Assembly (NCBI GenBank): GCA_012838995.1
Contig: DUOD01000013.1
Location: 28,561-92,560 of the forward strand
From: Clostridiales bacterium
Lineage (GTDB): Bacteria > Bacillota > Clostridia > DUOD01
Length of the DNA stretch: 64,000 bases
Reading direction: 5' to 3'
The position numbers and the translations under genes were made by a program. The notes under the pieces are model-generated. The model ran no database searches. It saw only the letters and a program-made list of their open reading frames with translations, and was not told where the DNA came from. Below, piece by piece: positions 28,130 to 40,406 of the stretch. Each line of letters opens with the position of its first letter. Position 1 is the stretch's first letter.

Positions 28130-28804
28130 CTATTCTCCGCTGGGCCTGGGTACTATATCCAATATCTGTTCCCCATCGTCCACATTGACATAATAACGGG
28201 GAACATCACCGATTATAACCGTATCCACTACCGGCACATGGGACACCACGGTGACCAGGTAGGAGTCCAAAGGCACCGCAACGCGCACCTGGGTTTCCAC
28301 CCTTATGTTTATACTGTGTCGTGTTTGGTTAACCCCCGCTTGCTCAAATTGGCTTACAAAGTCGGCTTCTACAGATCCTACAGGCAGAACCTTTACCCTT
28401 ATCATGGGGCCGGCACCGGCAAAAATACTGCTTTGGAGGGTGGCACCTACCGGAATTTCAATACCCTGTTGAGTCCTTTTATTAAGTTCTTCTATTACAT
28501 ATTCGGTAAGTTGAGAAGCTATAAGATTCATCTTTACCGTATTGGCCTGCAGGGCGTTTATTTTCCCAGAGCTGTCCCTTACCATCGTAACAAAGTCTTC
28601 ATAACTTACATTGCCCAACAATCTTTTTCCCACCGCTTCGTTTATCGACTCGGTGGCAATCACCCTGACCTTTGCTTCGCATATGGCAAAAAGTACGGGT
28701 TTTATTCGGGTATCTATTATAATCAGCATAATAATCAAAATAGCAATTATCACGGTTATGTAAAAAATAAACCTGCTTTTGATAAACCTTTTTCTACGTA
28801 TCAT
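28130..28804 (-). CDS. yunB: Sporulation protein YunB-like, membrane-anchored
   Basis: Basic N-terminus, a transmembrane helix, then a about 190-aa domain. The size and organisation match the YunB family, and it sits divergent to a class A PBP. Confidence 0.45.
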   Translation of the reverse strand: MIRRKRFIKSRFIFYITVIIAILIIMLIIIDTRIKPVLFAICEAKVRVIATESINEAVGKRLLGNVSYEDFVTMVRDSSGKINALQANTVKMNLIASQLTEYVIEELNKRTQQGIEIPVGATLQSSIFAGAGPMIRVKVLPVGSVEADFVSQFEQAGVNQTRHSINIRVETQVRVAVPLDSYLVTVVSHVPVVDTVIIGDVPRYYVNVDDGEQILDIVPRPSGE

Positions 28805-28948: not shown

Positions 28949-31609
28949 ATGAAGTTTTTTCAAAAAGGAAAAAACTCTGCTAATAATAAAAAGGCTGTAA
29001 AACCAAATAATGAATCTCAGGAAAAGGGCTGGCTGGTAAAGAAGAAGAAAAAACCCAATACAGCCCTAACTATTTTTGTTACTTCTCTAAGGATATTCAT
29101 TATTGTCATCCTATTGGTGTTTTTTATAGGCATTGGTGCAGTATTCGGTATAGGCAAAGCTTATTTGGATTCCACGCCCGAACTGGACCTTGAAAAAATC
29201 GAGAATCAAAGTGAGGCCAGTTTTATATATGATGCAAACGGCGAGCTGTTAACCGAGTATTATGGCTATGAATACCGTATATGGGCCTCCCTGGATGAGA
29301 TACCCGAAGACCTTCAAAATGCCTTTATAGCCATAGAAGACGTGCGATTTAGGGCCCATAACGGTGTTGACTTTAAGAGGATTATCGGCGCTTTTATATC
29401 AAACATAAAAAGCGACAGTGTTCAGGGTGCCAGTACCATAACACAACAACTTATAAAAAACAGGATTTTGACCCCCGAGCGTAGTTACAAACGTAAAATT
29501 CAAGAAGCTTATCTTGCATTGCAATTGGAAAAAAAGTATACAAAGGAGCAGATACTGGAGGCCTATCTTAATACCATTTGGCTGGACCGCTCTGTTTATG
29601 GGGTTAAGGCCGCGGCAGAATACTATTTCGGTAAAGAACTCAGTGAACTCAATTTAAAGGAATGCGCAGTTCTGGCTGGTATGACTCAAAATCCTTCCTA
29701 TTATTCACCCTATAATAAGAATCAGGAAAATTTTGAGCGTACCAATAAAAGAGCCAATTTGGTATTAAGCATAATGTATGAAGAGGGCTTTATTACCGAA
29801 CAGGAATACAACAAGGCAAAGGAAACGGAGATTGTGGTAAAACCTCCCGAAGAAAATGCTTGGAGTTTTGATATGGCATACTTTATTGAATATGCCATAA
29901 AAGACGTAAGAAACCACCTTATGCAAAAATACAATGTCAGTCTGTCGGAAGCCGAGCAGATGCTTTTGACGGGCGGTTATAAAATATATACCACCCTTGA
30001 CCCGGAAATTCAAAAAACCGCAGAAGAAGCCGTCAAAAACTATGATCAATACCCCAAGCTACCTCAAAATATATCGATAGGCAAACAAACCGGAGCCATG
30101 CAGCCCCAGGCGGCTGCCGTGGTCATGGATCATCGTACCGGTGAAGTCAAAGCATTGGTGGGCGGTAGGGAGACCCCCGATGTTAGGCGAACCTTTAATA
30201 GGGCTACCGATTCCCTGCTTCAAATCGGTTCCACGATAAAGCCCATATCTGTTTACGCCCCGGCTTTAGACAACGGTTTGTCACCGGCTACGGTATTTGA
30301 CGATATCCCTGCACCCATTCCCGGGTGGAAGTCTAAAAATGGATACCCCAACAATTACGATTATTTCAGAGGTCTCATAACCATGCGGGATGCCGTAAAG
30401 TTTTCCGTTAACCACGTAGCGGCCGAAACCCTTGCCAAGCATGTGGGTGTAGACACGGCTGCCCAATACCTTATAAATATGGGTATTGATCAACGGGGAA
30501 TAGAGAATAACCTAAGCGGACTTTCACTGGGGACTTCCGCCATGTCCCCCTTGGAACTGGCGGGAGCGTTTAGTACAATAGCAAATAAAGGTGTATATCA
30601 ACAACCTATTACCTTTACCAGGGTTGAGGATAAGGACGGTAAAGTAATTCTGGATAAAACCGATCAGATAAAAAGGGTGGTCATGAAGGAAACATCGGCC
30701 TTTATGCTAAACAGTATGCTGGAAGATGTAGTAAACAGCGGTACCGGCACAAATGTAAAGTTCGGCAAAATGCCCTTGGCGGGCAAAACCGGTACCAATG
30801 AAAAGGTCAAGGGCGTACTTTTTGCAGGGTATTCCCCCTACTATACATCCATTGTATGGATAGGACACGACGATAACGAAAGCCTGCCACGAAACGCTAC
30901 CGGTGGACGCACCGCAGGACTTCTTTGGCGAAATATCATGAAACCTATACATGAAGGTTTGGAGCCGATAAAAATTTATGAAGGTGTACCTGAAGGTATA
31001 GTACGTGTGAGCGTATGCTCAAAGTCAGGCAAACTACCCACGGATTTATGCAGCCAGGCCGGCCATGTTGTAACCGACTACTTTTTAACCGGTACAGTTC
31101 CCCGGGAAAAATGTGATTACCATATAAAATATTCCATATGTTCAGAATCCGGTAAAACACCGGGAGAATTCTGTCCGGAGGAAAGCATTGTGTCGCGTGT
31201 ATTTGTTAAACGGCCAAGTAATTCACCCTATTTTACCCAATTAAGTGCTGAACAGAGAAAGCTTGTAAGGGATTATGATGAGCAGTTACCCGAAACGGCG
31301 ACGGATAAGGGCATATGTGACGTCCATACTATGGAATGGTGGCTGGCAGAAGAGGAAAGAAAACGTCTGGAAGAAGAGGAAAACGCCCAGGGACCGGACA
31401 ATGAAGCAAATCCTGAAGAAGAACCCGGTACTGACCCTGGGAAGGATCCGGGTACCGACCCGGGAAGTGATCCCGGTACCGACCCGGGAAGCGATCCGGG
31501 CACCGGCTCAGGAAATGATCCCGGCGCCAATCCGGGCGCCAACCCGGGAAATGATCCGGGGGCAGGCAATAGAAAAAACGATGGTAATAATGATAAAAAA
31601 GATGGATAA
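28949..31609 (+). CDS. Class A penicillin-binding protein (bifunctional transglycosylase/transpeptidase, PBP1A-type), 886 aa with a Cys-rich segment and a low-complexity C-terminal tail
   Basis: GT51 motifs (EDVRFRAHNGVD, GASTITQQL) and transpeptidase motifs (STIKP, SVN, KTGT). It has an N-terminal signal anchor, a C-terminal CxxxxC...C.YH...C...C segment and a D-P-G repeat tail. Confidence 0.9.
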   Translation: MKFFQKGKNSANNKKAVKPNNESQEKGWLVKKKKKPNTALTIFVTSLRIFIIVILLVFFIGIGAVFGIGKAYLDSTPELDLEKIENQSEASFIYDANGELLTEYYGYEYRIWASLDEIPEDLQNAFIAIEDVRFRAHNGVDFKRIIGAFISNIKSDSVQGASTITQQLIKNRILTPERSYKRKIQEAYLALQLEKKYTKEQILEAYLNTIWLDRSVYGVKAAAEYYFGKELSELNLKECAVLAGMTQNPSYYSPYNKNQENFERTNKRANLVLSIMYEEGFITEQEYNKAKETEIVVKPPEENAWSFDMAYFIEYAIKDVRNHLMQKYNVSLSEAEQMLLTGGYKIYTTLDPEIQKTAEEAVKNYDQYPKLPQNISIGKQTGAMQPQAAAVVMDHRTGEVKALVGGRETPDVRRTFNRATDSLLQIGSTIKPISVYAPALDNGLSPATVFDDIPAPIPGWKSKNGYPNNYDYFRGLITMRDAVKFSVNHVAAETLAKHVGVDTAAQYLINMGIDQRGIENNLSGLSLGTSAMSPLELAGAFSTIANKGVYQQPITFTRVEDKDGKVILDKTDQIKRVVMKETSAFMLNSMLEDVVNSGTGTNVKFGKMPLAGKTGTNEKVKGVLFAGYSPYYTSIVWIGHDDNESLPRNATGGRTAGLLWRNIMKPIHEGLEPIKIYEGVPEGIVRVSVCSKSGKLPTDLCSQAGHVVTDYFLTGTVPREKCDYHIKYSICSESGKTPGEFCPEESIVSRVFVKRPSNSPYFTQLSAEQRKLVRDYDEQLPETATDKGICDVHTMEWWLAEEERKRLEEEENAQGPDNEANPEEEPGTDPGKDPGTDPGSDPGTDPGSDPGTGSGNDPGANPGANPGNDPGAGNRKNDGNNDKKDG
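31420..31570 (+). repeat. In-frame tandem nucleotide repeats encoding a (D/N)PG(T/S/A/K) tail at the PBP C-terminus
   Basis: Repeated GATCCGGGTACCGACCCGGGAAGT-like units encode PGTDPGKDPGTDPGSDPGTDPGSDPGTGSGNDPGANPGANPGNDPGAG. Confidence 0.7.
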
Positions 31610-31637
31610 AAAGCGGTGTACCGCTTTTTATCCTTTT
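31609..31637 (+). terminator. Intrinsic terminator after the PBP gene
   Basis: AAGCGGtgtaCCGCTT followed by TTTATCCTTTTATTTT. Confidence 0.55.
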
Positions 31638-31654: not shown

Positions 31655-33133
31655 TTACCCAGAACCGGAGTCTTTATCGATGTTTCTTAAAAAACTCGGC
31701 CTGTACTTTACCTCGGGAACGGGTTTTCTTACCAATATGGTTTTAAGGGATCTAGTGTCCAAGGGTATTAGCGGCCATAGATAATTGGTACCGCCAAAGG
31801 ATTTTGTGGTAATCAATACTACAGCGGTAAACACCAACCCAAGGATAAAACCCAAATGGTTTAGTAATCCGGTTAAAATAAGGACCATCATCCTAAATAG
31901 TTTTATAGCAAGGGCAAACTCGATGCTTGGTATGGCGAAGGAGCAAATAGCCGTAAAGGCCATGTATAAAATGGTCTCCGGTACGAACATACCCACCTTT
32001 ATCGCCAGTTCCCCTAAAAGCAGTGCGCCTATAATGCCCAGGGACGTTGTTAATGCGTTGGGAGTGTGTATAGAAGCCATCCTTAAAACATCAATGCCAA
32101 ACTCCAGGATTAGAAACTGCAAAAGTAGGGGTAGCGTACTTTTCTCCTTTGGTCCTAAAAATTTCAGCCATTCGGGAAGGCTTGCCTTGTTTTGGACCAA
32201 CAGCAACCATATGGGTACCAGTATCAATGAAATTAGGATGGAAATCAAACGGATCCATCTAAGGTAAGTGCCTACCGTGGGTGCCTGGTAGTAATCCTCG
32301 GCATGCTGGGTAAAATGGAAAACGCTGACGGGCAGTATCATTACACTTGGGGATGTATCCACCATGACAATAATATGACCTTCCAACAGATGGGCGGCCG
32401 CCACGTCGGGGCGTTCGGTATAACGTATTTTGGGAAAAGGATTCCAGCTCCTGCCTATAATAAATTCCTCCAAGGTTTTTTCAGACATCTCCAGGGAGTC
32501 GGTATCGATGCTTTTTATCTTTTCCTTTACTTTTTTTACAAGATCGGGGTTTGCGATATCTTCTATGTACGAAACCACCACATCGCTTTTGGACCTGTTA
32601 CCCACCGACAATATTTCGTTCCTCAGCCTCGGATCCCTTATCCTTCTTCGTATAAGGGCGGTGTTAAATACTATGGTTTCCACCAGCCCGTCCCTTGAAC
32701 CACGGGTCACCCTTTCAAGGTCTGATTCTTCAGGGTTTCTGGCGGGATACTCCCGAGTATCCAAAAGTATTGCTTTGTCAATACCGTCTATGATAAGCGC
32801 ACACATCCCCGATAAAATACCGTCAATGACGAGATCGAACTCTTCCTGTATTTCAGTTTCGATATAAGGGATTTTGGTTTCTATTATCTTTTGCGGGGAC
32901 AGGGGGGCTATCTCCTCCCGGGTTGTATGTTGCAGAATCTTTAAAATGAATAATAATATGTCATCCTTTGTGAAGCCGTCAACAAAGATAATCGCCGCAT
33001 CTTTGCCGCATGTTTTTAACCTCCTTAGGATGATGTCGAAGTTTATGCCTATGGCCAACTTTTGGGAAATTTCTTCTATGTTATCCTTTAGCTTTTTTGT
33101 TAACTTGCCGCTAATTGTCACTGTAAAATCCAC
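31655..33133 (-). CDS. GerA-family spore germination protein with no adjacent B or C subunit; SpoVAF-like
   Basis: 492 aa with a soluble GerAA-type N-terminal domain and a C-terminal 4-5 helix membrane domain. There is no gerAB/gerAC nearby, and its start overlaps the stop of the upstream SpoVAEA-like gene. Confidence 0.6.
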   Translation of the reverse strand: MDFTVTISGKLTKKLKDNIEEISQKLAIGINFDIILRRLKTCGKDAAIIFVDGFTKDDILLFILKILQHTTREEIAPLSPQKIIETKIPYIETEIQEEFDLVIDGILSGMCALIIDGIDKAILLDTREYPARNPEESDLERVTRGSRDGLVETIVFNTALIRRRIRDPRLRNEILSVGNRSKSDVVVSYIEDIANPDLVKKVKEKIKSIDTDSLEMSEKTLEEFIIGRSWNPFPKIRYTERPDVAAAHLLEGHIIVMVDTSPSVMILPVSVFHFTQHAEDYYQAPTVGTYLRWIRLISILISLILVPIWLLLVQNKASLPEWLKFLGPKEKSTLPLLLQFLILEFGIDVLRMASIHTPNALTTSLGIIGALLLGELAIKVGMFVPETILYMAFTAICSFAIPSIEFALAIKLFRMMVLILTGLLNHLGFILGLVFTAVVLITTKSFGGTNYLWPLIPLDTRSLKTILVRKPVPEVKYRPSFLRNIDKDSGSG

Positions 33134-33680
33134 TCCTGACCAGTATTTCCTTTAGGGCTTTGGTGGTAATGGGCGCACCTTTCTTTATCTCATCCTTAAA
33201 ATTCATTTTACCCGGATCGCCAATGCCGATTATTATAGGAATATCAAGATCCTTAAGGATGCTTAAGGTATCACCGTAACATACATTGTCTTCCCTTTTA
33301 TTCCCGTTTTTATCCACCGCCTGATTTATCACCTGGCCGGTATTTGTCACCGAGGCATCAACTGTTATCCCTTCACCCCTTTCCATATTGGATGCAACGG
33401 CCACCACTCCCAAGACTTGTATCTCTTCATCATTGCATATGCTGCTTATAACCTCTTCGCCCTTGCCATGGCCCAATACTCCCCTGTCGTCCACCATAAC
33501 CACCACCGGGTCATGGGGTGTTTTTTTTATTTGTTCCTTTATGAATTCACCGGTTTTCATAGTGGGGTTTCCGGCCGAGCTGGATATACAACGGCCGTTA
33601 ATATTTTTCGCCGCCTGCTCAACGGCGCCCTTTGCCACCATATCACCGTCGGTTACGATTATTACCTTTCTTTTGTCCAT
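33111..33680 (-). CDS. Soluble 189-aa protein, SpoVAEA-like by context; carries Toprim-like acidic motifs
   Basis: KVIIVTDGDM...VVVMVDDRGVLGHGKGE is an arrangement similar to E...DxD Toprim proteins. It is translationally coupled to the SpoVAF-like gene. I cannot verify the family without a search. Confidence 0.35.
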   Translation of the reverse strand: MDKRKVIIVTDGDMVAKGAVEQAAKNINGRCISSSAGNPTMKTGEFIKEQIKKTPHDPVVVMVDDRGVLGHGKGEEVISSICNDEEIQVLGVVAVASNMERGEGITVDASVTNTGQVINQAVDKNGNKREDNVCYGDTLSILKDLDIPIIIGIGDPGKMNFKDEIKKGAPITTKALKEILVRSGFYSDN

Positions 33681-33694
33681 GTCATCACCTAAAA

Positions 33695-33730
33695 CAAATA
33701 CATAAAACGGAGCCGGATAAAGCTCCGTTT
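33695..33730 (-). terminator. Intrinsic terminator after the dodecin gene
   Basis: The minus-strand RNA reads AAACGGAGCuuuauccgGCUCCGUUU followed by UAUGUAUUU, immediately after the stop at 33733. Confidence 0.55.
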
Positions 33731-33732
33731 AC

Positions 33733-33945
33733 TTACCTTTTTTCATCGACAACTTCAAATGCTACATGTACATTGGCCTTATATTCAACTATTTTTCCAT
33801 CTTTGACATTGGCTGTATTATTTATAACTTCCACTCCCACTATGTTGTCAATGGTCTTGGAAGCTTCAGCCACCGCTTCTTCTACCGCTTCCTGCCAGCT
33901 GTTCTTTGACGATCCCACAAGATCCAAAATTTTATATGTCGACAT
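33733..33945 (-). CDS. Dodecin-family small flavin-binding protein (70 aa)
   Basis: MSTYKILDLVGSSKNSWQEAVEEAVAEASKTIDNIVGVEVIN...DGKIVEYKANVHVAFEV matches the dodecin pattern (K.IE.VG.S..S...A...A...A..T...I.....V......DG.I..Y...V.V.F). An AAGGAGG RBS is present. Confidence 0.65.
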   Translation of the reverse strand: MSTYKILDLVGSSKNSWQEAVEEAVAEASKTIDNIVGVEVINNTANVKDGKIVEYKANVHVAFEVVDEKR

Positions 33946-34192
33946 ATTAAACCTCCTTAAAAACTATTGTATTTTTAGTTTGCAGCTTTGTAATATATTT
34001 ATTCTTCCTAAAAATTTTCCAACATGTTCCTTGTATTCTTTTGGTCATGGCTGCCTTCCATATATTTTGTTATATCCTTTTTGTTATTTTTCGCCGACAA
34101 CTCTTCCATAATATCCAATGTCAAGGTCCTTATATTATGGTGCCCTTGCCTTTCTTTTTGGATATGGTCCTCCATAGCCGCCACCGTCCTTC

Positions 34193-34366
34193 CTAAGCGC
34201 TCATCTTGTTCCGGCCAAAGCAATCTTCCGTTTCCATTACAAATTTTGCACCGGAATAGCTCCTGCTTTGTTCCTTCTTCGCGATCAATCTGAAGGCCGC
34301 TATCAGGAAAACAAAGGACAAAAACAGTACTATGGCCAATGTGAAGGTTGTTATACGGGTTTCCAT
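34193..34366 (-). CDS. Small membrane protein, 57 aa, hand-called. It lies in a different frame from the 138-aa track ORF 34008..34424 that overlaps it
   Basis: GGAGG lies 9 nt upstream of the ATG. Translation gives METRITTFTLAIVLFLSFVFLIAAFRLIAKKEQSRSYSGAKFVMETEDCFGRNKMSA, with one clear transmembrane helix. The 138-aa ORF in the other frame has no RBS and no recognisable features. Confidence 0.4.
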   Translation of the reverse strand: METRITTFTLAIVLFLSFVFLIAAFRLIAKKEQSRSYSGAKFVMETEDCFGRNKMSA

Positions 34367-34479
34367 GACAATTTTCCTCCTCTTTGGTCATAAAAATAAT
34401 CCGATATAGCATAGTATCTAACATTTACCGTGCATTTATGTAATTTAAAACCACAAAAAAAAAGCAGTCGGTAGACTGC

Positions 34480-35214
34480 CTATTCCAACATACTCTTCAT
34501 TTTTTCGATTACCTTTTTTTCTACCCTGGACACCTGCACCTGGGATATACCCAATAAATCTGCTATTTCCCTTTGGGTTTTATCCTTAAAATATCTAAGG
34601 ATTATTATCTGCCGTTCCCTCTTTTCCAACTTAAGTAATAATTCTTTTAGGATTAGTTTGTCTATCATTTCTCCTTCCATATTGTCCTGATCGGTTAATT
34701 TATCCATCACTGTGACATCCTTGCCCTCTTCATGATATACCGGTTCATGCAAGGACAACGGAACCAGACTGGCTTCCAGGGCATTTAATATATCACCGAT
34801 ATTCAGCTGGGTTTCCTTGCTTATCTCCGTTATGGTAGGGTCTCTGTTATACTCCTTCTTAAGCTTTTCGGAAGCAGCCTTTATTTTAACGGCAAGGTCC
34901 TTTAAATTTCTACTTACCTTTATCATTCCGTCGTCTCTTATAAACCGCTTTATCTCGCCCAAAATCATGGGGACGGCATAGGTAGAAAATTTTACATTAA
35001 AACTTTCGTCAAAGTTGTTTATCGCCTTCATCAGTCCAATACTTCCCACTTGGAAGAGATCTTCATATTCATGACCGCGGCCCAGAAATCTTTTGGCAAT
35101 ACTCTTTATCAGCCCGATATTCCTATTCACCACATATTCCCGCGCCCTTTTACTTCCGGCCTTTGCTTGTCTTAAAACTTCCAGATAATCCTGGTCTTCG
35201 GAATGTTGACCCAT
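34480..35214 (-). CDS. sigF: Sporulation sigma factor SigF (sigma-F)
   Basis: Sigma-70 regions 2-4 with SigF-type residues (LIKSIAKRFLGRGHEYEDLFQVG...). It sits downstream of spoIIAB. Confidence 0.9.
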   Translation of the reverse strand: MGQHSEDQDYLEVLRQAKAGSKRAREYVVNRNIGLIKSIAKRFLGRGHEYEDLFQVGSIGLMKAINNFDESFNVKFSTYAVPMILGEIKRFIRDDGMIKVSRNLKDLAVKIKAASEKLKKEYNRDPTITEISKETQLNIGDILNALEASLVPLSLHEPVYHEEGKDVTVMDKLTDQDNMEGEMIDKLILKELLLKLEKRERQIIILRYFKDKTQREIADLLGISQVQVSRVEKKVIEKMKSMLE

Positions 35215-35227
35215 AACTGCCCCTCCT

Positions 35228-35662
35228 TTAATCGGAGGTATCAGCTAAATATTTTTTTAGTGTTACCCGGGTACCTTTATTGACGTGTGATTCTACTATT
35301 ACTTCGTCCATAAAAGTTTCCATTACCGTAAAGCCCATTCCCGACCTTTCAAGCTCAGGCTTTGACGTATAAAGGGGCTGTTTTGCCTTTTCTATATCTT
35401 CTATTCCCTTTCCTTCATCAATAACACTTATCGTTATTCCTTTATCGTCTATAATGCCATGGATTTTTACATAGCCTAATTTATTTTCATAGCCATGGAT
35501 AATGGCATTGGTAACTGCCTCAGAAACGGCCGTTTTTATATCCGCTAACTGTTCAAGGGTAGGATTTAACTGTGCTGCAAAGGCACTTACCACTATCCGC
35601 GCAAAGGATTCATTTTGTGAGATGCTTAAAAACTCAACCTTGAACTCATTTTTTTTGTTCAT
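35228..35662 (-). CDS. spoIIAB: Anti-sigma F factor (serine kinase) SpoIIAB
   Basis: GHKL ATPase motifs ([17 protein letters not shown]) at 144 aa. Confidence 0.9.
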
Positions 35663-35706: not shown

Positions 35707-36015
35707 TTATTTGCGAACCTTTATTATATTAAACAGGCCGGATACCTCCATGACCTTTTTCACCTGCGGTGAAAGGTTGGTCACCCACACTTGTCCGCCC
35801 CTTTGTGAAATGCTTTTATATCTACCTATTATTACTCCCACTCCGGAACTGTCCATAAAGGGAACCCCTTTAAAATCCAGCAACAATTTTTTTGCATTTG
35901 TCTTATTTATCATCCCCTCCAGGGCATTTCTAAAACTGACGGAAGAATGGTGATCGAGTTCCCCTTGCATATGTACAATTAGCGTATCCCCTTGTTTATC
36001 AAAAATAAATTTCAA
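35707..36015 (-). CDS. spoIIAA: Anti-sigma F factor antagonist SpoIIAA (STAS domain)
   Basis: STAS fold with the phosphorylatable Ser motif (DSSGVGVIIG) at 102 aa. Confidence 0.9.
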   Translation of the reverse strand: MKFIFDKQGDTLIVHMQGELDHHSSVSFRNALEGMINKTNAKKLLLDFKGVPFMDSSGVGVIIGRYKSISQRGGQVWVTNLSPQVKKVMEVSGLFNIIKVRK

Positions 36016-36917: not shown

Positions 36918-38036
36918 CTATGTTATAAGCTGTTTATAGACATTTTCATACCGTGGAATTATTTTATCGGCAGTAAAGTTGTTCCTTGCATGTTCAACGG
37001 ACTTTTCTCTCATTTCACTTAGTTTTTCGTCATCCTTTAATATATCAATTCCATGACGGGCCATGGTATGTACATCTCCTATATCGCACAGGTAACCTGT
37101 ATGGCCGTGTTTTACCACTTCCGGGATTCCTCCGGCATTTGACGCAATGACCGGTACACCGCAGGCCATGGCTTCCAAGGCTACCAACCCGAAACTTTCG
37201 GTATCCGAAGTCAACAAAAACAGATCCGACATGGAAAGAAGTTTTACTATATCGGTCTGCTTTCCTAAAAAGTGTACCTTGGATATAATATTCAGGTCTT
37301 GCGCCAACTTATAAGCATTGTTCCGTTCCGGCCCATCGCCCACCATAAGCAGATGACAATCAACTTCCCTTTGTATCAGGTCAAAGGTTTTTATAACATC
37401 ATCAATGCGTTTTACCGGTCTAAAATTTGATATATGGATTATTATTTTTTTACCGGTGCCAAACAAGGATTCCCTGGTGTTTTGGGCATTAAGCCTCTTA
37501 AACCTGTCGATATTGATAAAATTATATATTGTTTTTATGGGCTTGTTTACGTTAAAAAATTGCTTTGTATGACGGGTTAGGAAACTTGATACCGAGGTGA
37601 CACAGTCACTTTGGTTTATCATGAATTCTGTAATGTTTTTTAGTTGGGGGTTTTTACCTACAACGGTGATATCTGTACCATGAAGGGTGGTAACCGTTTT
37701 AAGGTCGTACCGGTCCAGCATTTCCCTAGCCAGATATGCACTGGCCGAATGGGGAATGGCATAATGGGCATGGATAATATCTAATTTTTCCCTTTGGGCA
37801 ACCTGTGCTATTTTAGCCGCTAAAGCCAACAAATAGGGTTTATGGATAAAAACCGGATAGTCCACCAGTTCCACTTCATGAAAATATATATTCCTTTGGT
37901 AATTATTTAATCTAAAGGGTTGGTCATAGGAAATAAAGTGCACGTTATGACCCCTGGATGCTAATTCCATACCCAGCTCAGTTGCCACCACCCCGCTTCC
38001 TCCATAAGTGGGATAACAACAAATACCGATGTTCAT
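36918..38036 (-). CDS. bshA: N-acetyl-alpha-D-glucosaminyl L-malate synthase (bacillithiol glycosyltransferase, GT4)
   Basis: The N-terminus MNIGICCYPTYGGSGVVATELGMELASRGH matches the BshA signature, and there is a GT-B C-terminal domain with E...E. The start overlaps the bshB stop (TGATG). Confidence 0.8.
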   Translation of the reverse strand: MNIGICCYPTYGGSGVVATELGMELASRGHNVHFISYDQPFRLNNYQRNIYFHEVELVDYPVFIHKPYLLALAAKIAQVAQREKLDIIHAHYAIPHSASAYLAREMLDRYDLKTVTTLHGTDITVVGKNPQLKNITEFMINQSDCVTSVSSFLTRHTKQFFNVNKPIKTIYNFINIDRFKRLNAQNTRESLFGTGKKIIIHISNFRPVKRIDDVIKTFDLIQREVDCHLLMVGDGPERNNAYKLAQDLNIISKVHFLGKQTDIVKLLSMSDLFLLTSDTESFGLVALEAMACGVPVIASNAGGIPEVVKHGHTGYLCDIGDVHTMARHGIDILKDDEKLSEMREKSVEHARNNFTADKIIPRYENVYKQLIT

Positions 38037-38746
38037 CAAATTACACCTCCATCGAAGAAATTGTTTATCCCAAGAGGTTTTTGGGTGCAAAACCCTTCTC
38101 CGTATTTAAACCCTGCCTGGACACCTAAGTATGAATCTCTGCACCTGATCTTCGATATATAATCGCTGTTTAAGGGTGTGGTCAAATCCCCCTTATCCTT
38201 TACAAACTGGCTTTTAAAACATGATAAAGCCCTCAGCTTCATATCGTAGTATCGAGAGACATCCACCACTAAATCCGGTGTTTCATCAAAAGCGTTGATA
38301 TAGTAATAAAATACCCGGCGTACCCTATGGGGTTTTTGTTCACAGGGGAATTTAGCCAGGGTGCTGTCAAATACCGCATGGCTAATCAACTCACTGCATC
38401 TTACATGGTCGGGATGCCGGTCCTTTGCCAAGGGTGCAAAAACATAAGCCGGTTTATAAACCCTTATCAGCTCCACTATCCTTTGCCTGTTTTCCAAATT
38501 ACAGTCTATATTTCCGTCTTCAATTCCCAGATTGATCCTGGATCTAAGTTTGAGGATATCTGCAGATCTTTTAGCCTCCTTTGCCCTTTGTTCAACGGTA
38601 CCGTTTGTCGATCTTTCACCCCTGGTCACGTCTACGAACACAGCGCTAAATCCAAGGCTTATGTGCTTTGCTACAGTTGCGGCCATCCCTATTTCAATAT
38701 CGTCGGGATGGGCACCAAAGCATAGAATGTCAACACTGGTTTTCAC
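38036..38746 (-). CDS. bshB1: N-acetyl-alpha-D-glucosaminyl L-malate deacetylase (LmbE family)
   Basis: LmbE/PIG-L motif (AHPDDIEIG) at 236 aa. Confidence 0.8.
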   Translation of the reverse strand: MKTSVDILCFGAHPDDIEIGMAATVAKHISLGFSAVFVDVTRGERSTNGTVEQRAKEAKRSADILKLRSRINLGIEDGNIDCNLENRQRIVELIRVYKPAYVFAPLAKDRHPDHVRCSELISHAVFDSTLAKFPCEQKPHRVRRVFYYYINAFDETPDLVVDVSRYYDMKLRALSCFKSQFVKDKGDLTTPLNSDYISKIRCRDSYLGVQAGFKYGEGFCTQKPLGINNFFDGGVI

Positions 38747-40406
38747 CGGTTATATCCCTCCGTTTCCTGCAAAGTTGTTCTTCAGAAACTATAAGAATTA
38801 GCCGTGGATATTTTTGATCAAGGGGCAAATTGTTTATAAGAAAATCTATGATTCTGCTACCGTATTGGGCAATAAAGGTAAATATATTAAGTTCCCTATC
38901 TTGGTCATTGCTTTTCGGATAAAGATAATCATAAAGGAGAACAAAATCCTTAACCAACTTCCGGTTGTGCTTTTTATAGTAATAGTATATCTTTCTTTCC
39001 AGATACTCAATTTGTAACCTTATTTTGTTGAAGTTGGTCTTTATTATATCCTCCCTTCCCTCTAAAAATGGAACCGACCGACCCAGCTCATCATACCGGT
39101 TTTGTATGCCCTGGCTAATGTCACTTAGTTTTTGTTTTATTTCACTAAACCCCTTGTCTTGCAAAATACGGTATGTCATCTCTTCAAGACTGTCGGATAA
39201 AACATCCTCCACCGAAAGGAAATATTTATCCATTATCGATTTAAAGTAATCATCTATTAAAATCAGTCTATTTCTAGGATATATAATGGGCATTTTCATA
39301 TTAAACAGATGATACACCCTTTTGAACTGGCAGTAGTAGGATATCTCACCGGGACCGGCGACATATGCTAAAGTGGGAAATAGTTTTTCCTGTACCACCG
39401 GTCTTAGCACCACGTTTGGACTAAACAGCCACGGATACCGGCGGATTCTCGACTTTAACCCTTCCCTGTCGCCAAAGCATACCGACCCGTCCCTGGTGAT
39501 ATATTCCTTACCCTTTGAAATTACAAGTTTTCTGATGCCATCATCATAATAAAACAGGTTGGTGGAGTGGGGCGGTATTTTTACCTGTACCCTAAAACCC
39601 ATCTCGGCTATGGCCTTGCTGGTATCTTTTACGATGCTGTTAACACTTTCCCAATTGTCAGCCGCCTGCAAAAATATATCCCACGACAATTTTCTCAATT
39701 CTAAATCCATGGGGTCCATTAATACCAGACCGTGATCCCTGAACAATGATGCCATAATCCGCGCGTACCATTCACCCAGGGTCTTTGACTGGGTAAGGGT
39801 TTTTTTCAACATATCATAGGTTTCTTCTTTATATTGACCATCTAGAGTATTATTGTATAGTATATCTAACATATTTTCCATATCAGGGGAAATGGGTATG
39901 GAACCGACGGACCGACCGACACTATCCGGTTGTTTCAATATATACCTTTTTACCTCTAGGTCCTTATTAATATAATTTATCCATGATACTTCTTGAAAAT
40001 CATGATCTTCGCTTGCTATCCAAAAAATCGGGACTACCGGTAAGCCCAGCTTAGCCTCCCAATGTCTTGCAAGGTTGATTGCGGTAATAGCCTTATATAT
40101 AGAGTATAACGGTCCTGTCAAAATACCCGCCTGCTGGCCGGTAACAACTGCATACCATAACCGGTGTTTTGCGGCTTCTAATGCCCTAAGGGTTTTAGGA
40201 CCACAACCCATCGATAGGTTATACCTTATAAGAGCATTGATCAATCGGTGGTTATTATCCCTTATATGCTGACTTAGATATTGGACTCGTTTGCATAGAC
40301 TGTCGGGTTCTTTATAATGGAACTCAAAAAAACCCCTTAGCAAACGGGAATTTTCTATATAGAAAGGAGTTATGTTTTTTCTTCTTTGATTATTGTTCAT
40401 TCCCAA
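38730..40406 (-). CDS. bshC: Bacillithiol biosynthesis cysteine-adding enzyme BshC
   Basis: The conserved segment VVTGQQAGILTGPLYSIYKA matches the VVGGQQAGLLTGPLYTIHK motif of BshC (DUF1444) at 558 aa. Confidence 0.75.
   Translation of the reverse strand: MGMNNNQRRKNITPFYIENSRLLRGFFEFHYKEPDSLCKRVQYLSQHIRDNNHRLINALIRYNLSMGCGPKTLRALEAAKHRLWYAVVTGQQAGILTGPLYSIYKAITAINLARHWEAKLGLPVVPIFWIASEDHDFQEVSWINYINKDLEVKRYILKQPDSVGRSVGSIPISPDMENMLDILYNNTLDGQYKEETYDMLKKTLTQSKTLGEWYARIMASLFRDHGLVLMDPMDLELRKLSWDIFLQAADNWESVNSIVKDTSKAIAEMGFRVQVKIPPHSTNLFYYDDGIRKLVISKGKEYITRDGSVCFGDREGLKSRIRRYPWLFSPNVVLRPVVQEKLFPTLAYVAGPGEISYYCQFKRVYHLFNMKMPIIYPRNRLILIDDYFKSIMDKYFLSVEDVLSDSLEEMTYRILQDKGFSEIKQKLSDISQGIQNRYDELGRSVPFLEGREDIIKTNFNKIRLQIEYLERKIYYYYKKHNRKLVKDFVLLYDYLYPKSNDQDRELNIFTFIAQYGSRIIDFLINNLPLDQKYPRLILIVSEEQLCRKRRDITGENQC

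Follow-up and report, generated by a model that had tools for sequence, protein, structure and literature searches.

The spoVA genes of spore-forming bacteria comprise genes of the dipicolinic acid (DPA) channel, spoVAC, spoVAD and spoVAEB, and accessory genes such as spoVAEA and spoVAF. A published table places the former three among the genes that bacilli and clostridia have in common and puts spoVAEA and spoVAF in a separate column of less widely conserved genes (PMC3533761, Table 3). SpoVAF (5AF) is a homologue of GerAA that is predicted to form a pentamer or hexamer around a pore and accelerates the release of ions and DPA (PMC10903944). Its partner is FigP (YqhR), which is reported in most Bacilli and co-occurs with 5AA and 5AB, and 5AF of B. 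subtilis is unstable without FigP (PMC10903944). In-frame deletions in B. subtilis showed that germination is delayed by the loss of 5AF alone, and not by that of 5AEa (PMC10903944). Both SpoVAEa and SpoVAF are dispensable for DPA uptake (PMC11841064). B. anthracis has two spoVA loci: spores without 5A2 are heat-sensitive and the C2/D2/Eb2/NJ2 complex is needed for DPA import, and the sigF-linked 5A1 has its germination role mainly through F1 (PMC13059800). Here we describe a locus in a 64,000-nucleotide stretch of contig DUOD01000013.1 from the Clostridiales bacterium assembly GCA_012838995.1 (hereafter the window), in which spoVAEA and spoVAF follow sigF without spoVAC, spoVAD and spoVAEB.

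Many public genomes contain the arrangement of the locus, which is a recurring variant of an operon already known and does not constitute a new kind of system. Taken as a whole, it is likely that the locus represents the tail of a Bacillus-type spoVA operon, that the spoVAC-spoVAD-spoVAEB trio was lost from this site and is encoded elsewhere in the genome, that SpoVAF forms a channel, and that expression of the genes takes place in the forespore. The gene order given in the preliminary description (sigF, an open reading frame (ORF) of 57 codons, a dodecin gene, the gene of a 189-residue protein, and a GerA-family gene) holds, with every one of these genes present on the minus strand. The features from sigF to the end of spoVAF are:

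34480-35214, minus strand: sigF (NCBIfam SigF/SigG subfamily, 328.7 bits, cut-off 311; Pfam Sigma70 regions 2, 3 and 4)
34462-34481, minus strand: hairpin resembling an intrinsic terminator, with a T9 run (terminator scan; fold of -11.9 kcal/mol, z = -2.4)
34412-34441, minus strand: candidate forespore-type (sigma-F/G-like) promoter, ACATA-18 nt-GATACTA (pattern match)
34193-34366, minus strand: ORF of a 57-residue single-pass membrane protein, with an AGGAGG ribosome-binding site
34008-34175, minus strand: ORF of a 55-residue hydrophilic protein (conservation in the relative L001 and substitution bias)
33976-34004, minus strand: second candidate forespore-type promoter, GAATA-17 nt-CAAACTA (pattern match)
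33733-33945, minus strand: dodecin-family gene, 70 residues (Pfam, E = 3e-24)
33705-33730, minus strand: hairpin 3' of the dodecin gene (terminator scan; -16.1 kcal/mol, z = -2.4)
33111-33680, minus strand: spoVAEA, 189-residue soluble protein (Pfam PF14097 and NCBIfam SpoVAEA)
31655-33121, minus strand: spoVAF orthologue, 488 residues (Pfam GerA, E = 3e-157)

Sequence and position identify the GerA-family protein as an orthologue of SpoVAF and not as the A subunit of a germinant receptor. The 488-residue protein aligns to positions 7-465 of the 466-position Pfam profile GerA (PF03323) with a score of 524 bits, and its N-terminal domain matches the structure 6O59, the N-terminal domain of a germinant-receptor A subunit (E = 5.9e-34). 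The strongest evidence for the assignment to SpoVAF is the conserved position in the spoVA operons of relatives. Proteins that are 62-67% identical to the window protein are encoded by the terminal gene of complete spoVA operons, flanked by sigF on one side and by a convergent gene of the class-A penicillin-binding protein PBP1A on the other. Many of the close matches in JGI, NCBI and UniRef carry the name "stage V sporulation protein AF". An operon with the B permease and C lipoprotein that accompany a GerAA-type A subunit is present neither at the locus nor in the rest of the window. The neighbours of the gene are spoVAEA and the convergent PBP1A gene, and the earlier remark that the GerA-family protein lacks B and C partners agrees with the absence of gerAB and gerAC from the window.

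The likely start of spoVAF is the GTG codon at 33121, located 11 nt downstream of an AGGAG sequence, and the resulting 488-residue product matches the database protein P0001/HHU62963.1, with 100% identity to P0001 and membership in the 90%-identity cluster of HHU62963.1. The start at position 33133, which gives an ORF of 492 codons, is probably wrong, and the GTG four codons later, preceded by AGGAG, fits the database protein. The 492-residue form has no exact database match, presumably because the true start is four codons downstream. From position 33121, spoVAF overlaps spoVAEA by 11 nt, which is in line with the translational coupling of the two genes that had been proposed. Overlap or close abutment of spoVAEA and spoVAF is kept in the gene calls of loci that contain both genes. 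A SpoVAF-like gene also occurs as an orphan: Clostridium botulinum CP027779.1 (1628902-1650326; locus L004) encodes a 474-residue GerA-family protein, 55% identical to that of the window, with no spoVA, gerB or gerC gene within 10 kb.

The gene directly upstream of spoVAF, overlapping it, is spoVAEA, and spoVAEB is absent from the locus. The 189-residue product, identical in sequence to HHU62964.1, passes the curated cut-offs of both profiles of the family, with 239.9 bits (cut-off 27, E = 1.9e-71, profile positions 1-180 of 180) for PF14097 and 208.4 bits (cut-off 200) for NCBIfam NF052647, so that its initial assignment to SpoVAEA is confirmed. In an alignment of 85 SpoVAEA sequences, 55 columns are at least 95% conserved, and the window protein keeps 54 of them; the exception is G28, which is replaced by Asn. 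The preliminary description had named two outcomes that would speak against its reading, a 189-residue protein unlike SpoVAEA and a GerA-family protein that groups with bona fide GerAA subunits; what we found is a member of the SpoVAEA family next to a positional orthologue of SpoVAF.

The acidic motifs of the 189-residue protein had been described as Toprim-like and unexplained. They are invariant in all 85 SpoVAEA sequences (T10-D11-G12-D13, D64-D65-x-G67, G74-E75, D137, G154-D155-x-G157-K158-M159 and D163). Therefore, the motifs TDGD, DD..G, GD.GKM and the others are a hallmark of the SpoVAEA family and not a special trait of the window protein. Homology to Toprim proteins was not established by any of four approaches. 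A Pfam scan of SpoVAEA at E ≤ 10 returned PF14097 and no Toprim family, and a profile search against PDB sequences gave only spurious matches to TAL effectors. Alignment of the 85-sequence SpoVAEA profile with the single sequence of E. coli DnaG by hhalign placed TDGD on the DGD motif of DnaG with a weak P of 0.049, compared to 0.17-0.28 for two unrelated controls and for RecR, which is a Toprim protein too. The structure model of SpoVAEA, predicted from the single sequence with low confidence (predicted local distance difference test score of 59.7), retrieved generic alpha/beta matches in a fold search. A literature search for a link between Toprim and SpoVA proteins was without result.

The remaining spoVA genes are missing from the site and from the window, as had been described for the DPA-channel core genes. 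The SpoVAA, SpoVAB, SpoVAC, SpoVAD and SpoVAEB proteins encoded by the complete operon of a relative, used as tblastn queries against the whole 64-kb window, gave nothing better than E = 0.86, and the combination of spoVAC, spoVAD and spoVAEB that characterises a canonical DPA-channel operon is absent from the locus. Pfam scans detected no GerAB, GerAC, Spore_permease, SpoVAC/AEB, SpoVAD or YqhR/FigP family member in the window. The scans covered ORFs of at least 100 residues that had not already been identified through near-identical relatives, and precomputed Pfam hits in relatives were used for the remaining genes. The scanned ORFs are housekeeping genes including relA, recJ, secDF, tgt, queA, ruvABC, argGH, ftsH and thiI.

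The survey of related loci places the window among several arrangements of the operon. One genome per species was used, and the best 80 of 306 loci retrieved with a SpoVAEA alignment as the query were kept and annotated by tblastn; a single SpoVAEA protein as the query had recovered no relatives. With the spoVA genes abbreviated to their last letters, the commonest order is sigF-AC-AD-AEB-AEA without AF, present in 45 loci (more if loci on cut contigs are counted). The trio is combined with AF in eight loci, two of which have a dodecin gene between sigF and AC. The order of the window, sigF-dodecin-AEA-AF, is found in six loci, sigF-dodecin-AEA in one, sigF-AEA-AF in three, including Heliobacterium mobile and H. 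chlorum, and sigF-AEA in four. Thus the trio is missing from the site in 14 of the 80 loci, seven of which contain the dodecin gene, and no trio lies within 10 kb of any of these trio-less loci. At least 50 of the 80 loci have SpoVAEA and no SpoVAF. The six loci of the window type come from a Mahellales metagenome-assembled genome (MAG), two unclassified Bacillota MAGs, Desulforadius tongensis DSM 29799 and two sources named Peptococcaceae or Desulfotomaculum. The trio-less loci are located in about five or six separate places on a SpoVAEA tree built by neighbour joining.

Individual loci that share flanking genes with the window illustrate the intermediate forms. Crassaminicella thermophila (L003; 62% identity) has the order sigF-AA-AB-small ORF-AC-AD-AEB-AEA-AF followed by a convergent PBP1A gene, and a metagenome contig (L007; 65%) has the same operon order with yunB beyond PBP1A. 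Locus L005 (67%) lacks AA and AB and reads sigF-57 aa-51 aa-AC-AD-AEB-AEA-AF-PBP1A-yunB. Locus L006 (63%), with the order sigF-56 aa-48 aa-AEA-AF, is an independent trio-less case, and L001, L002 and L008-L011 have the arrangement of the window. In the complete genome of Pelotomaculum thermopropionicum SI (L091; AP009389.1, 1259239-1276252), the order is sigF-dodecin-AC-AD-AEB-AF without spoVAEA; therefore, SpoVAF can directly follow AEB. Together, the compared sequences indicate that the spoVA operon is modular and that the window represents one of its recurrent states.

The genes left at the site are not decaying remnants. Substitutions between the window and its 87%-identical relative L001 were counted by codon position. 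They amount to 24/9/63 at the first, second and third positions in spoVAEA, 56/13/186 in spoVAF, 10/4/19 in the 57-codon ORF and 7/4/14 in the 55-codon ORF, compared to 24/6/97 in sigF; the counts for the dodecin gene are 5/1/22. Since the divergence is biased towards third positions as it is in sigF, spoVAEA, spoVAF and both small ORFs are functional genes, and every gene of the locus is under purifying selection.

Two small genes are located between sigF and the dodecin gene. The 57-residue membrane protein with its strong ribosome-binding site was recognised at the outset, and the 55-codon ORF, which had not been listed, has to be added. Other assemblies of the same organism have a single call of 127 residues between sigF and the dodecin gene, and L001 has two small calls. 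We rejected the competing 138-residue frame (34008-34424, minus strand) as a gene, as its substitution counts of 19/10/4 are the signature of a wrong frame. Because this pattern is opposite to that of both small ORFs, the 127/138-residue call is an artefact that fuses the 55-codon ORF with an out-of-frame stretch and overlaps the 57-codon gene.

The 57-residue protein has a basic N-terminus, one transmembrane helix and an SGAKFV motif, and searches of Pfam and NCBIfam gave no family match to it. In at least 47 of 81 loci, sigF is immediately followed by a homologous small ORF of approximately 50-80 codons, irrespective of the gene that comes next. Such a small membrane ORF was noted between sigF and the next spoVA gene in L003, L005, L006 and L007 and among L012-L090. 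The pattern of the family is a basic N-terminus and one transmembrane helix, followed by a motif resembling (K/R)xPSR(A/G)(K/V)(L/F)V, of which SGAKFV is the version in the window. The small membrane protein seems to be the product of a gene at the spoIIA-spoVA junction that is widely conserved and has so far gone undescribed. The 55-codon ORF is kept in L001 (HNIRTLTLD...KDITKY...SHDQKNTRN), and a Pfam search with its product gave no match.

The third gene at the 5' part of the locus belongs to the dodecin family, with 85.5 bits for Pfam PF07311 (cut-off 22.5). It remains below the curated NCBIfam cut-offs, scoring 55.3 bits for NF043052 (cut-off 75) and 53.6 bits for NF041389 (cut-off 100). 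In flavin dodecins, which are known from Halobacterium, Thermus and Halorhodospira among others, a strand Trp in the sequence xxW(A/F)EV stacks on the flavin. In the window protein, Gly37 takes the place of the strand Trp (xxW[AF]EV) when aligned with the Halobacterium dodecins, 2VXA and 6RI3. All spoVA-linked dodecins compared (L001, L028, L040, L049, L053, L056, L057, L077 and L086) have Gly or Glu at this position and a shifted Trp. The best PDB match of the window dodecin is 3ONR, the calcium dodecin Rv0379 of M. tuberculosis (E = 2.5e-8), by a small margin over the best flavin dodecin (36.9 vs 36.2 bits). The protein had been called flavin-binding. Flavin binding is doubtful, because the flavin-stacking Trp is absent, both NCBIfam scores are below their cut-offs, and the closest relative of solved structure is a calcium dodecin.

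Nine of the 80 genome loci, and P. thermopropionicum as well, have a dodecin gene inserted between sigF and the spoVA genes. The sigF-spoVA-linked dodecins are encoded by a Mahellales MAG, several genomes of the Peptococcaceae/Desulfotomaculum type, a Thermoanaerobacteraceae MAG and P. thermopropionicum SI. A literature search found no report of a connection between dodecins and sporulation genes. The possibility of a Ca2+-binding dodecamer encoded at the head of an operon for calcium-DPA (Ca-DPA) is attractive as a lead only.

Signals for the expression of the locus were identified by pattern matching. The regular expression G/A-N-AT-N, a spacer of 16-19 nt, and CANANTA found two promoter candidates, which resemble the forespore sigma-F/G consensus of B. 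subtilis and share the form G/A-N-ATA, 17-18 nt, (C/G)A-N-A-N-TA. The first, ACATA-18 nt-GATACTA after the sigF terminator, belongs to the non-coding block that is most strongly conserved in a comparison of the window with L001. The second is located approximately 30 nt upstream of the dodecin start and has the form GAATA-17-CAGACTA in L001. The strict sigma-G/F expression gave no promoter common to all loci. A looser motif recognised by eye, approximately G(T/C)AT(T/A)AA and, some 15 nt further on, AATA(C/G)TA, precedes the first gene after sigF in several loci. Comparable motifs are present within the first ~150 nt after sigF in L005, L006, L040, L043, L049, L057 and L077, and a looser promoter-like motif stands directly before the dodecin gene in loci of the Peptococcaceae type. 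The stem of the hairpin 3' of the sigF stop codon is kept in L001.

The hairpin behind the dodecin gene, previously described as the gene's own terminator, is real, with a predicted folding energy of -16.1 kcal/mol and an identical stem with a different loop in L001. Its T tract is weak, and it may be a partial terminator or a processing site. Because only ~30 nt separate it from the spoVAEA start (the gap between dodecin gene and spoVAEA is ~13-53 nt in relatives of the Peptococcaceae type), spoVAEA and spoVAF are probably transcribed by read-through of the hairpin, which may lower their level relative to that of the dodecin gene.

Based on the structure of the locus and the comparison with relatives, a history and a function can be proposed. 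A seven-gene ancestral spoVA operon would have occupied its ancestral place between spoIIA and the convergent PBP1A-yunB pair. In the Mahellales-related lineage, the DPA-channel genes spoVAC-AD-AEB, and spoVAA and spoVAB if they were ever present, would have been removed from the site, leaving five genes, which encode the small membrane protein, the small hydrophilic protein, the dodecin-like protein, SpoVAEA and SpoVAF. These genes would be transcribed in the forespore from sigma-F/G-type promoters located after the sigF terminator, with transcription passing through the dodecin hairpin. By analogy with 5AF of B. subtilis and B. anthracis, SpoVAF would form a GerAA-like oligomeric cation channel in the inner membrane of the spore. 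Once the germinant receptors fire, the channel would speed the release of ions and hence that of Ca-DPA. SpoVAEA would be a peripheral accessory protein. The trio is presumably encoded elsewhere in the genome, because spoVAC, spoVAD and spoVAEB are near-universal in spore formers (PMC3533761). A second trio like that of B. anthracis 5A2 may have made the sigF-linked copy dispensable.

Several observations weigh against this proposal. No spoVAC, spoVAD or spoVAEB gene was located for the organism. Homology searches with the SpoVAD proteins of L005 and L053 returned at least 8000 matches, and none of the best 120 is attributable to the source MAG; since the searches yielded thousands of closely similar proteins, of which these are the best 120, the SpoVAD of the MAG could lie outside them. 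Ten SpoVAD matches from NCBI, checked by cluster, included no HHU accession. We considered P0129 as the SpoVAD of the source MAG and rejected it, as it belongs to an ordinary sigF-AC-AD-AEB-AEA locus. Furthermore, 5AF of B. subtilis needs FigP for its stability (PMC10903944), and none was found in the window. The promoter assignments are matches to a consensus and are best treated as candidates.

In a different reading, close to that of the preliminary description, SpoVAEA and SpoVAF constitute a self-contained two-protein germination module, and SpoVAEA stabilises or gates SpoVAF in Clostridia that lack FigP. This would account for the persistence of the coupled pair after the departure of the DPA-channel genes. 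The idea has merits, since the stop of AEA and the start of AF overlap or abut wherever both genes are present, AF is kept in nine of 14 trio-less loci compared to eight of 58 trio-containing ones, FigP is reported mainly in Bacilli together with 5AA and 5AB (PMC10903944), and the scans of the window detected no FigP. However, the enrichment of AF is confounded by phylogeny, as most of the trio-less loci with AF belong to one cluster of Desulfotomaculia and Heliobacteria. The two proteins also occur apart: besides the many loci with SpoVAEA and no SpoVAF, five trio-less loci lack AF (four sigF-AEA and one sigF-dodecin-AEA), while P. thermopropionicum has SpoVAF and no SpoVAEA, and the SpoVAF-like gene of C. 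botulinum stands by itself. In B. subtilis, the deletion of spoVAEa is silent and that of spoVAF causes a germination defect (PMC10903944). We therefore regard a two-protein module as unlikely. The preliminary description had presented the SpoVAEA-SpoVAF pair as a compact version of the module formed by SpoVAF and its ion-channel partner. The literature names FigP/YqhR as the partner and reports no germination phenotype for the spoVAEa deletion (PMC10903944), and a compact pair is not what it describes.

A broader speculation includes the genes at the 5' part of the locus. SpoVAEA and SpoVAF might act together with the dodecin-like protein and the small membrane protein as an accessory germination unit of the forespore that is independent of the DPA-channel genes. 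The Trp-less, Rv0379-like dodecin would then form a dodecamer that binds Ca2+ and no flavin and serves as a calcium buffer or store in the handling of Ca-DPA, and SpoVAEA or the small membrane protein would replace FigP as the partner of SpoVAF in Clostridia without FigP. We give this combination little credence.

It is very improbable that the lineage has truly lost the SpoVAC/AD/AEB channel, so that it would form no DPA-loaded endospores or would import DPA in another way, with the remaining genes repurposed. The absence of the trio from the window and from the 10-kb surroundings of every trio-less locus would fit such a loss, as would the lack of a SpoVAD from the source MAG among the best 120 of at least 8000 matches, but 120 of thousands of matches cannot exclude its presence. 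Moreover, purifying selection acts on spoIIAA, spoIIAB, sigF, yunB, AEA and AF, all of which are intact. The arrangement is also present in the cultured Heliobacterium mobile, H. chlorum and Desulforadius tongensis, whose genera are described as spore formers. A literature search for spoVAD in Heliobacterium was without result. The place of spoVAC, spoVAD and spoVAEB among the sporulation genes that bacilli and clostridia both conserve (PMC3533761, Table 3) also speaks against the loss.

It is scarcely credible that an ordinary A subunit of a germinant receptor, with its B and C partners elsewhere, lies next to spoVAEA by chance in the form of the GerA-family protein: its Pfam family and N-terminal domain are those of GerAA-type proteins and NCBI names it only "spore germination protein", but it reaches 216 bits of the 850-bit cut-off of the sole matching NCBIfam GerxA equivalog, the window contains no gerAB or gerAC, many close matches are named SpoVAF, and its 62-67% identical relatives end complete spoVA operons in matching flanks.

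The flanks of the locus comprise the following features:

35707-36015, minus strand: spoIIAA (NCBIfam, 123.8 bits, cut-off 114.75; Pfam STAS)
35228-35662, minus strand: spoIIAB (NCBIfam, 204.9 bits, cut-off 135; Pfam HATPase_c_2)
31604-31633: bidirectional terminator of spoVAF and the convergent PBP1A gene (13-bp stem in the scan; -19.9 kcal/mol, z = -7.0)
28949-31609, plus strand: convergent gene of the class-A penicillin-binding protein PBP1A (Pfam Transgly and Transpeptidase)
28130-28804, minus strand: yunB (Pfam Spore_YunB)

The pair of the penicillin-binding protein gene and yunB is also located 3' of spoVAF or spoVAEA in L001, L005, L006, L007 and many genome loci, and L003 has only the convergent penicillin-binding protein gene at this flank. 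The closest named relative of the window is a Mahellales MAG with 86-87% identity. At its C-terminus (~31390-31609, plus strand), PBP1A carries an extended tail of low complexity made up of DPG(T/S/A/N)-type repeats (…PGTDPGKDPGTDPGSDPGTDPGSDPGTGSGNDPGANPGANPGNDPGAGN…), which gives rise to several spurious overlapping ORFs on both strands. Upstream of spoIIAA, the region 36918-40406 (minus strand) encodes a methyltransferase, followed by a GT4 glycosyltransferase, a PIG-L deacetylase and a BshC-family protein. According to Pfam assignments transferred from the near-identical loci L001 and L008, these genes look like a bshA-bshB-bshC cluster for bacillithiol synthesis in an anaerobic Clostridia MAG.

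If the proposed reading of the locus as the tail of a spoVA operon is correct, both poorly understood accessory spoVA genes are kept under purifying selection and coupled at the sigF locus without the channel genes. This would agree with SpoVAF being an ion channel and not a component of DPA transport. Loci of this kind would provide natural "deletion mutants" for the study of SpoVAF and SpoVAEA outside Bacillus, and they would raise the question of what stabilises SpoVAF without FigP and SpoVAA/AB. The picture of sporulation is unchanged, and the finding is modest: an ordinary operon variant with two modest new leads, the Trp-less calcium-dodecin-like gene at the head of the spoVA operon and the conserved small membrane protein after sigF in most of the Clostridia examined.

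The locus can be compared with five described systems. It shares with the spoVA operon of B. subtilis the place after spoIIAA-AB-sigF and the last two genes, AEA and then AF, in the same order, but differs in lacking AA, AB, AC, AD and AEB and in having two small ORFs and a dodecin gene at its 5' part. The clostridial loci L003 and L007 show the full seven-gene version in the flanking context of the window. The dodecin belongs to the same Pfam family as the calcium dodecin Rv0379 (3ONR) and shares with it the Trp in the SW(Q/E)xA helix and the absence of the strand Trp; it differs in that the two are only ~36% identical (counted by hand), and in that its gene stands at the head of a spoVA operon, a setting peculiar to spore formers.

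In comparison with the SpoVAF/FigP channel (PMC10903944; PMC13059800), the 488-residue protein of the window is a full-length GerA-family member and the positional orthologue of 5AF, and its expected role is likewise the amplification of ion release at germination, with channel activity predicted by analogy. The difference is that FigP (YqhR), 5AA and 5AB are absent from the 64-kb window. The dual loci of B. anthracis (PMC13059800) provide a precedent for the split of functions and correspond to the state expected just before the loss of a resident trio. Nevertheless, 5A1 of B. anthracis retains C1/D1/Eb1, whereas the resident trio is gone from the window and the second locus would lie elsewhere in the genome. 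With the C. difficile-type spoVAC-AD-AE and the sigF-AC-AD-AEB-AEA operons, the locus has in common the position after sigF, and it shares the small membrane ORF and SpoVAEA with the latter, the commonest clostridial order. Clostridial operons of the spoVAC-AD-AE type have the channel and usually no SpoVAF, and the locus of the window is their inverse.

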